A DNA stretch of 64,000 bases from a virus: IMG/VR virus record IMGVR_UViG_3300027770_000029; one strand, 5' to 3'. The position numbers and the translations under genes were made by a program. Positions 46,698 through 55,899 of this stretch are shown piece by piece (the stretch's first letter is position 1; the number at the start of each line of letters is the position of its first letter). Under the pieces are notes generated by a model, which worked only from the letters and a program-made list of their open reading frames with translations, ran no database searches and was not told the origin of the DNA.

Positions 46698-47273
46698 ATG
46701 TGGACATGCAAACATTGCAAGAATAATTTTGAGTTTGATTCTTTGTCTGATAAAGCTAATCACTCTAGATGGTGCGAAAAAAATCCAAAAAAAGAAAACA
46801 CTGAGAGCTTAAAACTCGCGCAGTCACTTTCAGTAGAAAAAAGACTTGGGCCGATTCAAGAATTTGAAGTCTTTTGCGAGACTTGCTCCAAACTCTTTAT
46901 GATTAAAGAGAGAGCAAAGAAATTTCCGTCTAAAGAAAAATACTTTTGCTCAAGAAGCTGCGCAAATTCTTTAGGCGGAAAAGCAAAATCAGAAAAATAC
47001 AGGATCAATGAACCGAAGCATTACGTAGCTATTGCGTGGAAATACCATGATAAAGTTTGCTGCGTTTGCGACGAAAATAAGATTGTAGCTGTTCATCATT
47101 GTGATGAGAATCACGACAATAATGATCCAAAAAATCTAGTTCCTCTTTGTCCAACTCATCATCAGTACATGCATAGCAGATACAAAATCGAAATACAAGA
47201 TAAAGTTCAGAAATACATCAATGATAAATGGGCTGTAAGTGTTGTCGGGGGCACACGGGCTTTGCAAGCCTGA
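46698..47273 (+). CDS. HNH homing-endonuclease-like protein
   Basis: CCVC...VHH.D....NNDPKNLVPLCPTHH; AT-rich; stop inside tRNA-Ala. Confidence 0.85.
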   Translation: MWTCKHCKNNFEFDSLSDKANHSRWCEKNPKKENTESLKLAQSLSVEKRLGPIQEFEVFCETCSKLFMIKERAKKFPSKEKYFCSRSCANSLGGKAKSEKYRINEPKHYVAIAWKYHDKVCCVCDENKIVAVHHCDENHDNNDPKNLVPLCPTHHQYMHSRYKIEIQDKVQKYINDKWAVSVVGGTRALQA

Positions 47274-47304
47274 AGGACCGGTTCGATTCCGGTACGGTCC
47301 ACCA
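47230..47304 (+). tRNA. trnA: tRNA-Ala(TGC), atypical D-arm
   Basis: G3.U70, loop TTTGCAA, A73, CCA. Confidence 0.85.
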
Positions 47305-47342
47305 TTCAACAATCGCACGAGAGTGCACAATCAAGGAGAAAA

Positions 47343-47651
47343 ATGCGTAACTTCACGATCTCTGCTTTTGCAGTCGCAGCTCTGGCCCTTGCTGGCTGCC
47401 ATCATGACGATGACAAGGACGACGACACTGTTACCTGCCCTCAGGATACTGCTGGTCAGGACACTGCCGTGACCGATCCGGTTGACACCGCGGACACCAG
47501 CGGTGGCGATACTGCCGATACTTCGACTCCGCAGGATACGGCGTCCCAGGATACCGGGGCTGACACTGGTGCTGGTAGCGACACCGGCGCAACTGATACT
47601 GGCGCTTCCAGCGACACTGGTTCCGGCGGCACCGACACCTCGGCTCCCTAA
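47343..47651 (+). CDS. Asp/Thr-rich lipoprotein
   Basis: Lipobox LAGC, DTG/DTA repeats. Confidence 0.75.
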   Translation: MRNFTISAFAVAALALAGCHHDDDKDDDTVTCPQDTAGQDTAVTDPVDTADTSGGDTADTSTPQDTASQDTGADTGAGSDTGATDTGASSDTGSGGTDTSAP

Positions 47652-47659
47652 CAGATTTT

Positions 47660-47751
47660 GGGAGAGCTGCTAGGGCGGTGGTCTAGCGACGAGCTGTAAA
47701 CCCGTTCCCTCAGGGCAAACACTGTCAGTTCGAATCTGACCTCTCCCACCA
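47660..47751 (+). tRNA. trnY: tRNA-Tyr(GTA)
   Basis: Loop CTGTAAA, long variable arm, CCA. Confidence 0.88.
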
Positions 47752-47755
47752 TCGA

Positions 47756-47832
47756 AGGACTATAGCTCAGTTGGTTAGAGCTAGCGTTTCATACACACTC
47801 GGTCACTTGTTCGAATCAAGTTAGTGCCACCA
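47756..47832 (+). tRNA. tRNA with CAT anticodon (Met or Ile2), stem mismatches
   Basis: Loop TTCATAC, canonical D and T arms, mismatched acceptor. Confidence 0.65.
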
Positions 47833-47833
47833 T

Positions 47834-47908
47834 TGTCGGATAACTCAACGGCAGAGTGCCACCCTTACAAGGTGGAGGTTGTGGGTTCAAATCCCACTCT
47901 GACAACCA
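47834..47908 (+). tRNA. trnV: tRNA-Val(TAC)
   Basis: CCACC-CTTACAA-GGTGG, CCA. Confidence 0.92.
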
Positions 47909-53174: not shown

Positions 53175-54201
53175 AGTGACCTAGATCAGCCAGAACAAGC
53201 TCACCTGTCTCCGGCCTTAGCATGATGTTGTTTCCGTGAACGTCAGACGGATTGATGTTCATTGACTTTAGATCCTCAAGTGCGCTCACGAGTTCCCGGA
53301 CTCCCTTGATTCTTCCAAGCGGTCCAGGGACTTCTTTCGTCGGCTCTTTCGGAACCGCTCGACGTCCGAGCAAGCTCGTTATTGAGCTCATTATCATCTG
53401 ATTCAACGACTGTATTGAACCAGGTCTGGTGATTCCAAGCGCGCGGCACCAGAGCTCAACTTTCTTTCCAATCGCCGATCTTAGTCCGTCAATGGCCGAG
53501 AGCATTATTCCACTACCTTGATCTGTTACCTCAGGGTCATAAGATGCGGAGACCAGCATTTTCTTAAGTCTGCTGAATTCTTCGGCTGGGTCTGATTTTC
53601 TTGGAGCACCGGCAATCGCTGCGTCGACCGCGCGCTTCGATCTGCTCATTGCCTCATCAACGACTGCTGAGAAAGCTTCACGATCGCTAACAAGAGAGCC
53701 TAAAGAGTGGATGGATCGAGTCGCTGGCTGGGTAATGAGATCGAACATATTTCCCGGTAGCTCCTCGAGTCTCTCCATGACAATGACACCCAGATTCTCT
53801 GGACTTCCAAAGTCATCAGTTGGAAGCGGAACTCCCAGGTCCTCTAGCGTTCTGATCTTATAGATCACTGGCATATGGCGAGCAACCCGGTCTGGTAGTC
53901 TGACAATCGCTTGCTGGGCGCGTTTGTAGCTCTCGATCTCATTCAGGGGCTGAATCTTAAGAATTACGTTTTCATTTCTCTCGTCGACGGCTGAGAATGT
54001 GTAAGCTCCGTACAGCCTCTTGGATCTTGACAGGTATCGAACGTCGGCCAATCCCATCTCTTCTGCGACATCTTTGGCCACACTTTCCATCTTCGCTCGT
54101 CTCTGCACAAACGGATCTGCTGGGACATGGTGGGCTGGTAGTGGCGCGGTGGCGTCCGATTCCAGCATCAAGCGTATCAGCTTTCTTAGGTTTCCGTTCA
54201 T
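53167..54201 (-). CDS. Protein-kinase-like (APH/RIO-like) protein
   Basis: ILKI, IVMERL, DVHGNN, LADLG; late motif 54207; N-terminal LRKLIR tag. Confidence 0.75.
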   Translation of the reverse strand: MNGNLRKLIRLMLESDATAPLPAHHVPADPFVQRRAKMESVAKDVAEEMGLADVRYLSRSKRLYGAYTFSAVDERNENVILKIQPLNEIESYKRAQQAIVRLPDRVARHMPVIYKIRTLEDLGVPLPTDDFGSPENLGVIVMERLEELPGNMFDLITQPATRSIHSLGSLVSDREAFSAVVDEAMSRSKRAVDAAIAGAPRKSDPAEEFSRLKKMLVSASYDPEVTDQGSGIMLSAIDGLRSAIGKKVELWCRALGITRPGSIQSLNQMIMSSITSLLGRRAVPKEPTKEVPGPLGRIKGVRELVSALEDLKSMNINPSDVHGNNIMLRPETGELVLADLGHFT

Positions 54202-54255
54202 CTTGTTAAATATTCGTTGCAAATTGAACTCGTCACCAGTATAGTCTTTCTGTTG

Positions 54256-54331
54256 GCCCCGGTAGACCAGCGGCAGAGTCAGGAGACTTAAAATCTCTGT
54301 AGGGCGGGTTCGAATCCCGCCCGGGGCACCA
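54256..54331 (+). tRNA. trnL: tRNA-Leu(TAA) with short variable loop
   Basis: GGAGA-CTTAAAA-TCTCT, A73, CCA. Confidence 0.82.
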
Positions 54332-54387
54332 CTCTGTTTATAGTCTCAGTAAAAGAGTTAAAATTAACGTCTCAAAGGAGAAGCACA

Positions 54388-54495
54388 ATGAAGTTCGTCA
54401 TTCTTGCAGTTCTCGGTTCTCTCTTCCTCGGTGGTTGCACCGGTGGTAAGGACGATACCGGCACTGATACGAGCTCTGCCACTACGGCCGAGTGA
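54388..54495 (+). CDS. 35-aa lipoprotein (MKFVILAVLGSLFLGGC...DTG)
   Basis: SD GGAG, lipobox, manual translation. Confidence 0.6.
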   Translation: MKFVILAVLGSLFLGGCTGGKDDTGTDTSSATTAE

Positions 54496-54571
54496 TCCTA
54501 AAGCTCAAAATAGAGCGACGGCTGGCACTGGTTGCCAGCCGTTTTCATATTTACGAGCGGAGAAAATTAGC

Positions 54572-55168
54572 ATGCTAACTGCAATTGGCGACGTGATGAG
54601 GAAGTGCTACGATCGTGGATGGATCACAAATCGTGACGGAAATATCTCACTGTGTCGTAATAACTCGAAGACTCTGTACATCACGCCTTCAGGCTGGAGG
54701 AAGACTATCATCCACCCAGAGCATATCGTGAAGTGCAAGCTTGTCGATGACGGCGTAATCGCTCCTTCCGGACAAACCGCAAGCGGTGAGCTTCATATGC
54801 ACTGGCTCATTCAGAAGGATTTCACAAAAACCCGCGCCGTCGTTCATGTTCACGCGACCCATGTGGTTGCAGCAATGTTTGCAGGTTGGGACCTTCAGGA
54901 GCTCGCCAGACAGTTTCCAGAAGTGAACCGGTACACCCGAGTAGGGCCTAACGTACCTGCCCTGCCGGCAACATCACGTGAACTGGGCGATATGACTGGG
55001 GTGCATCTGGGGTGCCTACCGGACGGGTCGCTCCAGTATGATATCGTAGGGCAAGCGAATCACGGGGTCTGCGCAGTCGCTGGTGATCCGTGGTCAGCTT
55101 TTGAGCACGTTGAGCGTCTCGATCACATCTGCGAGATTGTGCTAAAAAGTGGCGTGAAGCCGAAATAA
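54572..55168 (+). CDS. Class II aldolase/adducin family protein
   Basis: DGNIS, ITPSG, SGE..MH, VVHVH, NHG. Confidence 0.9.
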   Translation: MLTAIGDVMRKCYDRGWITNRDGNISLCRNNSKTLYITPSGWRKTIIHPEHIVKCKLVDDGVIAPSGQTASGELHMHWLIQKDFTKTRAVVHVHATHVVAAMFAGWDLQELARQFPEVNRYTRVGPNVPALPATSRELGDMTGVHLGCLPDGSLQYDIVGQANHGVCAVAGDPWSAFEHVERLDHICEIVLKSGVKPK

Positions 55169-55218
55169 AGATCACAAATTCGAACTCAGGTTAATATCTA
55201 AAACAAGAGGATTAACTT

Positions 55219-55899
55219 ATGTTCGAATGCGAAAATTGCTCAATCTCTCATGATGCCTCGTATGGAAGCGGAAGATTCTGCAGCGCAAAATGTTCGAGGT
55301 CATTTTCGACTAGATCGAAGAGAAAAGAGATAAATGAAAAAGTCTCAAAGTCTTTGTCTGGTAGAGAATGTCCCAAAGATTTTGAGTGTGATGGGTGCGG
55401 TAAAAAATTCGGTTCGAAGATGGCTCTGATAGGGCACAAGTCAAATTGCGATAAAAATGATGCAAAGCTTGAACGCGAAAGATATAATCAAAACAGATTG
55501 GAAGTCAAGCTAAATGCTTCATTTGAAGAACTTTCAATCATCTTGAAAAGAGAAAAAATTTTCCGTGAACAATCTGGTAAATGTAACCATTGCGGATTAG
55601 AAAACTGGCTCGGACAAAAAATAACTCTAGAGCTTGAACATCGCGATGGAAACACAAATAATAATGACAGATCGAACCTAGAGCTTCTTTGCCCAAATTG
55701 CCATTCTCTAACTCACACGTGGAGAGGCAGAAATAAAAGCAAAAGTAACTCTAGAAAAAGAGTGAGTGATGAAGATCTTTCAGAAGCACTAAAAAGCAGC
55801 TTGTCAATTCGTCAGGCGCTGATTAAAGTTGGTTTAGCTCCTAAAGGTGCAAACTACTTCAGAGCGAAAAAGTTAAAAGAAAATTTAACGGGCCTTTAG
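55219..55899 (+). CDS. HNH homing-endonuclease-like protein with SYGSGRFC Zn-finger N-terminus
   Basis: CNHC...LELEHRDGN..NNDRSNLELLCPNCH; stop inside tRNA-Lys. Confidence 0.9.
   Translation: MFECENCSISHDASYGSGRFCSAKCSRSFSTRSKRKEINEKVSKSLSGRECPKDFECDGCGKKFGSKMALIGHKSNCDKNDAKLERERYNQNRLEVKLNASFEELSIILKREKIFREQSGKCNHCGLENWLGQKITLELEHRDGNTNNNDRSNLELLCPNCHSLTHTWRGRNKSKSNSRKRVSDEDLSEALKSSLSIRQALIKVGLAPKGANYFRAKKLKENLTGL

Follow-up and report, generated by a model that had tools for sequence, protein, structure and literature searches.

Within the 64,000 nucleotides (nt) analysed from the IMG/VR virus record IMGVR_UViG_3300027770_000029 (the whole stretch, hereafter the window), a cluster of transfer RNA (tRNA) genes contains three genes for HNH nucleases, here HNH-1, HNH-2 and HNH-3, whose open reading frames (ORFs) run into the tRNA gene downstream and take their stop codon from it. 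Comparison with related phages revealed the presence and absence of these genes, the boundaries of the units to which they belong, a tRNA-Ala gene broken at one of the sites, and the inheritance of each nuclease together with a particular tRNA allele or intron. The flanking sequence co-converted with the nuclease gene is the whole tRNA-Ala for HNH-1, a tRNA-Ser allele for HNH-2, and an intron for HNH-3. We propose that the three are probably free-standing homing-endonuclease units that target the tRNA genes of related phages, with the local state of the adjoining tRNA gene protecting the carrier. The original prediction, made from the letters of the window, had postulated a mobile nuclease accompanied by its own recoded tRNA, which replaces the resident one; the comparisons support a nuclease and tRNA behaving as one mobile unit that replaced the resident tRNA for HNH-1 and HNH-2, but not for HNH-3, where the exons of tRNA-Lys are unchanged.

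Nuclease genes that stop inside tRNA genes

The tRNA cluster occupies 44-58 kilobases (kb) of the window and belongs to a large uncultured phage. ARAGORN called 14 tRNAs in it, to which Rfam added two group I introns and one tRNA that ARAGORN had missed. One protein of the cluster was also found on a 181-kb contig, and megablast of the 14 kb against 50,697 phage records returned one 67-nt hit only, and thus no close cultured match. The overlaps between the ORFs and the tRNAs are exactly as predicted (44 nt for HNH-1 and tRNA-Ala, 52 nt for HNH-2 and tRNA-Ser, and 10 nt for HNH-3 and tRNA-Lys), and the other features that had been read from the sequence, namely the odd D loop of tRNA-Ala, the T loop TGCGAGT of tRNA-Ser, and the AT-richness of the three ORFs (GC fraction of 0.35-0.41 inside versus 0.5-0.6 in the flanks), held as well. 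Functionally, the assignment of all three ORFs to the HNH nucleases was borne out by Pfam and/or PHROGs matches: HNH-1 matched Pfam HNH_2 weakly and phrog_7545 (HNH endonuclease, E = 1e-7), HNH-2 matched PF01844 at 22.9 bits (cut-off 21.4) and phrog_10822, and HNH-3 matched phrog_14736 (HNH endonuclease, E = 1.5e-28). The catalytic His and Asn columns are conserved, with the His/Asn/His and the CPxCH or CPTHH columns invariant in the family alignments (A1-A3). HNH-2 and HNH-3 have a common nuclease core (39% identity over 74 residues), and HNH-1 belongs to a different subfamily.

Stopping inside a tRNA is a habit of these families and lies beyond chance, because HNH ORFs are enriched for such stops over other ORFs. 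Across 242 related loci, counting ORFs of at least 100 amino acids and tRNAs on the same strand, 76/238 ORFs with an HNH motif (32%) stop inside a tRNA, with 41 more ending at most 10 nt from one, versus 36/1029 other ORFs (3.5%), with 38 more at most 10 nt away; the rate of stops inside tRNAs is thus about nine times higher for HNH ORFs than for other ORFs of the same loci. These stops cluster at tRNA positions 8 (where TAG corresponds to U8-A9-G10), 13 and 6. Hundreds of homologues were recovered for each of the three proteins, and each HNH clade is faithful to one tRNA species, Ala, Ser(UGA) or Lys(UUU), with some relatives located tens to hundreds of nt away from any tRNA. The overlap was not seen in the distant cultured relatives Vibrio phage nt-1, Xanthomonas phage XbC2 and Yersinia phage fHe-Yen9-04. 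The peptide tails that the tRNAs encode clearly appear to be by-products without a function of their own, because they vary with the tRNA allele and the reading frame. Counts of canonical tRNA features (T8, A14, a TTCRA T loop and the D-loop GG) gave a modest trend, 47-53% versus 69% having all four, among the tRNAs called by ARAGORN, a restriction that leaves out the oddest tRNAs, which that program misses.

The three units and their empty sites in relatives

Two IMG/VR contigs, G001 (171.5 kb, locus L243) and G002 (151.7 kb, locus L244), were found via the neighbouring cytochrome c peroxidase gene and are collinear with the window, with amino-acid identities of 81-84% for the peroxidase (CCP), 85-87% for an aldolase, and 95-96% for a helicase. 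These sisters lack all three HNH genes at the syntenic sites, and one or another of the HNH units is encoded on the metagenome contigs L082, L245, L081, L001, L249, L258, L259 and L260. Presence and absence are polymorphic at fixed sites among collinear relatives, with L082 carrying HNH-2 without HNH-1, and L245 carrying HNH-1. The original prediction had singled out relatives lacking the nuclease genes as the informative comparison, and these do not carry the same atypical tRNA-Ala and tRNA-Ser alleles.

The resident tRNA-Ala gene of the window is represented by a stub upstream of HNH-1, which has one to three mismatches to the 5'-terminal 21 nt of the canonical tRNA-Ala that is intact in HNH-less relatives. 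In L082, G001/L243 and G002/L244, none of which has HNH-1 there, a conserved spacer is followed at once by canonical tRNA-Ala; L245/L246 also have this spacer, but behind it only 23 nt remain from the 5' end of the canonical tRNA-Ala, and a full-length, divergent tRNA-Ala comes after the HNH-1 leader and gene. The resident gene is therefore seen interrupted at position 21-23, in the D loop, in two different contexts (the window and L245), and the unit common to them can be aligned over precisely the segment that begins with the stub and ends where the downstream tRNA-Ala ends, with unrelated flanks on both sides. Structurally, the tRNA-Ala of the cassette has G3:U70, A73, a full cloverleaf and CCA, together with a non-canonical D arm (A8, U14), and scored 46.9 bits against RF00005 (gathering threshold 29), versus 67.8-69.6 bits for the canonical alleles of HNH-less relatives. 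It differs most visibly in the D arm, which is the arm where the resident gene broke. Because this allele is identical at 75/75 positions between the window and L245 while the HNH-1 proteins are only 69% identical, the comparison points to a working tRNA. The possibility that the stub and the downstream tRNA-Ala are halves of a split tRNA was rejected, because the acceptor strand of the stub and the 3' strand of the downstream tRNA-Ala match at 3/7 positions only, which rules out pairing; the downstream tRNA is, moreover, complete.

More broadly, the core of the HNH-1 family (524 homologues found) terminates with ...KWG, the W-G codons of which already overlap G1-G5 of tRNA-Ala, and beyond which members either stop immediately or continue for varying distances. 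A stub with at least 20/25 matches is retained in only 3/20 distinct loci of the family, so that insertion into the D loop is only a possible general property of it; most loci retain a short GGGAGAG-like element, which also pairs within the leader.

Judged by alignment, the segment exchanged at the second site is the nuclease plus tRNA-Ser, because the tRNA-Thr behind them is nearly identical to that of G001/L243 (one base different), and the DNA of the window is again homologous to that of G001 from 48941 onwards, a position within the T arm of tRNA-Ser. The sisters hold other alleles in this slot: G002 has a canonical tRNA-Ser(UGA) (60.8 bits) without a nuclease, and G001 has an unrelated endonuclease of 236 amino acids (phrog_15137, L243 2086-2796), the ORF of which overlaps a third tRNA-Ser(UGA) allele (L243 2773-2864) by 24 nt and stops in its D loop. 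A resident tRNA stub was not seen at HNH-2 in the loci compared. The allele of the window is atypical in having a 3-bp D stem one base past the acceptor stem, a G in place of U55 in the T loop, and a C-A mismatch at pair 31:39, and its long variable arm contains the HNH-2 stop codon. In Rfam, it matched the tRNA-Sec model only (35.3 bits, E = 6e-4, below gathering), and the HNH-2-linked tRNA-Ser alleles together scored 34-40 bits against that model, all below gathering. Evolutionarily, the consensus cloverleaf of four alleles comprises 27 pairs, and because three of these underwent compensatory double changes, the fold is by this measure under selection; the L260 allele has further changes in the acceptor stem. 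Every copy of the atypical allele that was seen lies behind a gene of the HNH-2 family (the window, L082, L001, L081 and L260), and no other tRNA-Ser(UGA) was called by ARAGORN in the cluster of the window. Translation of the 5' half of tRNA-Ser yields the 17-residue tail, which many HNH-2 relatives share; the relative in L260 reads the same tRNA in another frame to an earlier stop, and some homologues are tail-less.

Other unusual tRNA sequences were found around this slot in the relatives. An 89-nt tRNA-Thr(UGU) at L245 4378-4466 has a long extra arm, unusual for tRNA-Thr, and is flanked by a tail-less HNH-2-like gene and a tRNA-Ser(UGA). At about L244 2690-2745, G002 contains a 3' tRNA fragment (T arm and acceptor 3' strand) located between a small inserted ORF and tRNA-Thr; beyond this fragment, the sequence matches that behind the tRNA-Leu(UAG) of the window, and the fragment looks like another tRNA broken by insertion.

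The third unit differs in that the tRNA itself was not recoded, because the spliced exons of tRNA-Lys are identical to the uninterrupted 76-nt tRNA-Lys of the HNH-less G002. Homology to the sisters stops at 55169, the stop codon of the aldolase gene, restarts at 55876, 14 nt before tRNA-Lys, and from there on is broken solely by a group I intron, which interrupts tRNA-Lys after position 35 (RF00028, 56.6 bits, gathering 50) and within which no ORF of at least 50 amino acids is listed on the + strand; the original prediction had not mentioned this intron. Because the homology restarts ahead of the tRNA, the last codons of HNH-3 are, as aligned, resident spacer and tRNA, and the gene is without a stop of its own. 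Across a small sample of four distinct HNH-3 loci (the window, L247/L249, L258 and L259), the intron was present in 4/4, and it was absent from 2/2 HNH-less sisters (G001 and G002). The introns of L247/L249, L258 and L259 scored 54.9-59.5 bits against RF00028. These four loci vary in protein sequence (50-82% identity), tRNA-Lys exons (two sequences) and genomic context, and are alike in having the same intron, the same frame, and TAG at tRNA positions 8-10; relatives of HNH-3 end in G-x-stop, their last residues following the acceptor stem of the tRNA-Lys behind. This joint pattern may thus mark collaborative homing of a free-standing nuclease and an ORF-less intron, acting in this case on a tRNA gene.

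Elsewhere in the cluster, tRNA-Asn(GUU) (45339-45610) is also split in the anticodon loop by a group I intron (45362-45540), which is clearly homologous to the tRNA-Lys intron, with a score of 32.9 bits against RF00028 that is below gathering. Upstream of tRNA-Gly and this intron-bearing tRNA-Asn, the ORF P0004 (44267-45022) encodes the same N-terminal zinc-finger module as HNH-3 and has a weak TnsA-like nuclease match at its C-terminus (Pfam E = 1.3e-4), and it may represent a modular homing nuclease in which the catalytic domain was exchanged. Behind tRNA-Asn, a tRNA-like element (45616-45707) has a perfect acceptor-like stem and a T arm, ends with ATCA, and is without a normal anticodon arm; its only Rfam match was a weak one of the mascRNA type (23 bits).

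Upstream of the nuclease genes, the leaders of HNH-2 (folded over 48080-48165, -23.5 kcal/mol, z = -4.3) and HNH-3 (55165-55240, -19.2 kcal/mol, z = -5.1) were each more stable than all shuffled sequences (0/200 as stable), and the HNH-2 leader is kept in L082, L001, L081, L002 and L260. Leaders of the HNH-1 family have in common a small hairpin, a TATAAATA-like box, and a CTCC...GGAG pairing. Leaders in which the ribosome binding site is hidden, as by the hairpins of HNH-2 and HNH-3, suggest that expression of the nucleases is restrained and probably late. Restrained expression has been described for T4 homing genes, which the HNH leaders resemble in this respect. TTCGAA-like strings at the starts of HNH-2 and HNH-3 were considered as relics of tRNA T arms and rejected as such, since they belong to the conserved hairpins that enclose the ribosome binding site and start codon. 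In L083-L108, about 20-60 nt upstream of HNH-1-family starts, the order is a GGGAGAG-like element, a TTGCAA-type hairpin, the TATAAATA box, which resembles a T4 late promoter, and then CTCC, which pairs with the GGAG ribosome binding site.

Table 1 Positions in the window of the three nuclease units and the tRNA genes that they adjoin
Feature	Position	Strand	Remarks or basis
Resident tRNA-Ala stub, 21 nt	46627-46647	+	5' end: acceptor strand, D stem and part of D loop
HNH-1 leader, within mobile unit	46648-46697	+	Homologous between window and L245
HNH-1 gene, 191 amino acids, P0001	46698-47273	+	Final 14 codons and TGA stop are tRNA-Ala sequence
tRNA-Ala(UGC), cassette allele	47230-47304	+	ARAGORN
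HNH-2 leader, hairpin over Shine-Dalgarno and start codon	48080-48146	+	RNA fold
HNH-2 gene, 260 amino acids, P0002	48147-48929	+	Final 17 codons and TAA stop are tRNA-Ser sequence
tRNA-Ser(UGA), atypical allele	48878-48966	+	Rfam tRNA-Sec model; missed by ARAGORN
tRNA-Thr(UGU), resident, right-hand edge of HNH-2 unit	48971-49044	+	One base from tRNA-Thr of sister
HNH-3 leader, hairpin over Shine-Dalgarno and AUG	55170-55218	+	RNA fold
HNH-3 gene, 226 amino acids, P0003	55219-55899	+	Stop TAG is U8-A9-G10 of tRNA-Lys
tRNA-Lys(UUU) exon 1	55890-55924	+	With exon 2, equals uninterrupted tRNA-Lys of G002
ORF-less group I intron, 203 nt, tRNA-Lys anticodon loop	55925-56127	+	Rfam RF00028
tRNA-Lys(UUU) exon 2	56128-56168	+	Comparison with G002

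Other genes of the window include a di-haem cytochrome c peroxidase (CCP/MauG, Pfam E = 9.5e-50) at 49311-50456, within the tRNA cluster, which is an unusual auxiliary gene for a phage and is also kept in L081, L245, L243, L244 and L260. Distant from the cluster, at 7381-8784, lies another large HNH endonuclease ORF (467 amino acids, phrog_1314, E = 3e-45).

Proposed homing and competing explanations

Comparison with the relatives shows that HNH-1 interrupted a canonical resident tRNA-Ala within the D loop, leaving the 21-nt stub and bringing a complete foreign tRNA-Ala with a different D arm, that HNH-2 moves together with a peculiar tRNA-Ser(UGA) allele in the slot occupied by other alleles in the sisters, and that HNH-3 was inserted into the spacer, 14 nt ahead of a resident tRNA-Lys that is unchanged except for the ORF-less group I intron with which HNH-3 co-occurs. 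Mechanistically, each enzyme would cut the unmodified tRNA gene of HNH-less phages, with expected cut sites in or near the D arm for HNH-1, in the D or T arm for HNH-2, and at or near the intron insertion site for HNH-3. Repair from the carrier genome would then copy the nuclease gene together with the protecting variant or intron, and the variant arm or intron would remove the target site in the carrier; we infer this sequence of cutting, repair and site loss from the established homing biology of SegB and related enzymes. The overlap would arise because nuclease and tRNA are extremely close: translation of nuclease genes that lack a terminator would continue until the tRNA offers a stop in frame, often U8-A9-G10, and such tight abutment would keep recombination from parting the nuclease and its protecting allele.

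Several points weigh against this explanation. The target sites and the immunity of the carrier are inferred from anatomy. An HNH-less relative with an intact tRNA-Ala at the exact site of the window was not found, and the genomic context of the HNH-1 unit differs between the window and L245. The leader of HNH-1 in the window folds no better than its shuffles. Tail-less HNH-2 relatives (L002 and L245) adjoin more ordinary tRNA-Ser genes, and hence the odd tRNA-Ser is not required for an HNH-2-type gene. As for the rewritten D arm, none of the 13 distinct HNH-abutted tRNA-Ala(UGC) alleles has a canonical one (mean of 6.3/18 matches, versus 10.5/18 for 48 free alleles; Mann-Whitney p = 0.0017), a statistic that is supportive only, because the sequences are related and non-independent and the loci were picked for their HNH genes. 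Phage tRNAs are, besides, frequently non-canonical anyway.

Alternatively, the arrangement could be a passive footprint, with HNH genes landing in permissive, highly transcribed and recombination-prone tRNA clusters without any targeting of tRNAs, the overlap being an accident of lost stop codons and the allele differences a product of ordinary mosaic recombination. By-product tails that vary with allele and frame, and relatives located tens to hundreds of nt from a tRNA, would fit such a process, as would the mosaicism of the cluster, which between the sisters has differing tRNA orders and other inserted ORFs. However, we regard a purely passive footprint as unlikely, because tRNA-Ala is broken within the gene at the same place (21-23) in two contexts, each HNH clade is faithful to its tRNA species, and HNH-3 and the intron occur together in 4/4 loci and are jointly absent from 2/2. 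The roughly nine-fold excess of HNH stops in tRNAs also stands against it, and SegB shows that recognition of tRNA genes exists.

A second alternative is that host defence shaped the odd tRNAs, through escape from cleavage or replacement of cleaved tRNAs, with the HNH genes hitch-hiking and helping the spread. Phage tRNAs are known as counter-defence cargo, and according to one report, SegB-driven amplification of the tRNA region helps phage T6 to escape Septu, which cleaves tRNA-Tyr (PMC13096335). The strong purifying selection on the cassette tRNA-Ala (75/75 versus 69% for HNH-1) and the compensatory changes that maintain the tRNA-Ser fold are also consistent with such a role. Defence alone nevertheless appears improbable as the cause, given that the odd positions are found in the D arm and T loop, with ordinary anticodon loops, that the D arm, rewritten in the incoming tRNA-Ala, is also where the resident gene was broken, and that the mature tRNA-Lys is not different at all. 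Selection of this kind is compatible with the homing explanation and may add to the picture. That tRNA-Ala and tRNA-Ser are dead relics or decoys, with the ORF reading through a decaying gene, is very hard to credit: tRNA-Ser was missed by ARAGORN and is sub-gathering, with U55 changed to G, a one-base gap between the acceptor and D stems and C-A at 31:39, and tRNA-Ala scores about 22 bits under the canonical alleles, but conservation and covariation speak against the pseudogene reading, as tRNA-Ala keeps G3:U70, A73, cloverleaf and CCA at 46.9 bits against a gathering threshold of 29 and is 100% conserved across diverged cassettes, while tRNA-Ser has three compensatory pair changes in four alleles plus the acceptor-stem changes of L260 and is the sole tRNA-Ser(UGA) of its cluster.

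Two extensions of the homing explanation can be stated with less confidence. The fusion could act as a built-in dose limiter and linkage device, which we consider doubtful: the stop codon lies past the tRNA 5' end, RNase P, in maturing the tRNA, would sever the nuclease mRNA ahead of the stop codon and thereby produce a non-stop mRNA, and nuclease translation and tRNA maturation would therefore be mutually exclusive for each transcript. More boldly, if HNH-1 were to recognise the canonical D arm of tRNA-Ala, it would also cut the tRNA-Ala genes of the host, for which the phage would supply an immune substitute.

Relation to known homing systems

Free-standing homing endonucleases in phage tRNA clusters are already known, but to our knowledge, how such nucleases spare their own genome and reshape tRNA repertoires is poorly documented. 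Here, one cluster would contain three solutions, namely a replacement tRNA with a rewritten arm, a co-travelling odd allele, and a putative protecting intron, each of which is backed by natural empty-site relatives, and together they give an unusually clear picture of selfish nuclease genes reshaping the tRNA sets of phages. The proposed mechanism predicts cut sites that are directly testable in well-defined substrates, and would explain the aberrant look of some phage tRNAs and their escape from gene finders. That nuclease ORFs routinely take conserved tRNA bases as stop codons also matters for annotation, because gene callers usually forbid such overlaps. In a limited literature search, which is weak evidence of novelty, we found no description in phages of an overlap between a nuclease ORF and a tRNA, of tRNA replacement with a stub, or of collaborative homing on a tRNA gene; the last of these, if true, may perhaps be represented by HNH-3.

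SegB of phage T4 is a free-standing GIY-YIG homing endonuclease in the T4 tRNA cluster that recognises a T-arm motif of tRNA genes, cuts the tRNA genes of relatives without segB, and causes segB and adjacent tRNA genes of the T4 tRNA region to be inherited preferentially; the tRNA genes of T4 itself are still cleavable by SegB in vitro (PMC2330249). Like SegB, the nucleases of the window are free-standing and located inside a phage tRNA cluster; unlike SegB, they are of the HNH type, and each unit has a distinct putative protecting feature. For SegB, we found no report that the ORF enters a tRNA, that a resident tRNA was broken, or that a variant allele is dedicated to the nuclease.

Closer in enzyme type are the HNH endonucleases F-TflI, F-TflII and F-TflIV of the phage T5 tRNA region, which are known from biochemistry. 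Genes of this type in T5 and T4-like coliphages are, as in the window, free-standing and located in tRNA regions, and genes annotated as F-TflIV in T4-like coliphages match HNH-3 at 42% identity over its C-terminal half. In one such cultured coliphage, Escherichia phage BP32, the HNH gene annotated as F-TflIV (L256, OR906198.1 86401-87099) ends 6 nt before the tRNA-Leu that heads the tRNA cluster, and another homing endonuclease lies behind the cluster. Unlike the units of the window, F-Tfl-type genes have no annotated overlap, intron or replacement allele.

With respect to the intron, F-CphI at psbA of cyanophage S-PM2 is reportedly a case of collaborative homing, in which a free-standing endonuclease is encoded beside an ORF-less group I intron. 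A study of mobE and nrdB in T4 describes trans homing, also with a free-standing endonuclease next to an ORF-less group I intron (PMC2790892). HNH-3 resembles such systems in being free-standing, about 35 nt from the insertion site of an ORF-less intron, and present or absent jointly with it. It differs from both in that the interrupted gene is a tRNA and not a protein gene, and in that its ORF overlaps exon 1 and takes its stop codon there.

Finally, the replacement of tRNA-Ala recalls fungal mitochondrial mORFs, which bring a foreign gene end to atp6 of Allomyces macrogynus and to atp6, atp9, cox2 and nad3 of Glomus, where the foreign part functionally replaces the native part and the native piece persists as a remnant (PMC3630166). 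HNH-1 likewise moves with a foreign copy of its target, while a native tRNA-Ala stub of 21-23 nt stays behind in the window and L245. The likeness is limited to HNH-1, as no stub was seen at HNH-2 and the comparison does not apply to HNH-3. Whereas in the fungal case the target is a protein gene, whose 3' end is replaced and whose native C-terminal part persists downstream, the HNH-1 unit supplies a whole tRNA downstream of a native 5' stub, and does so in a phage.

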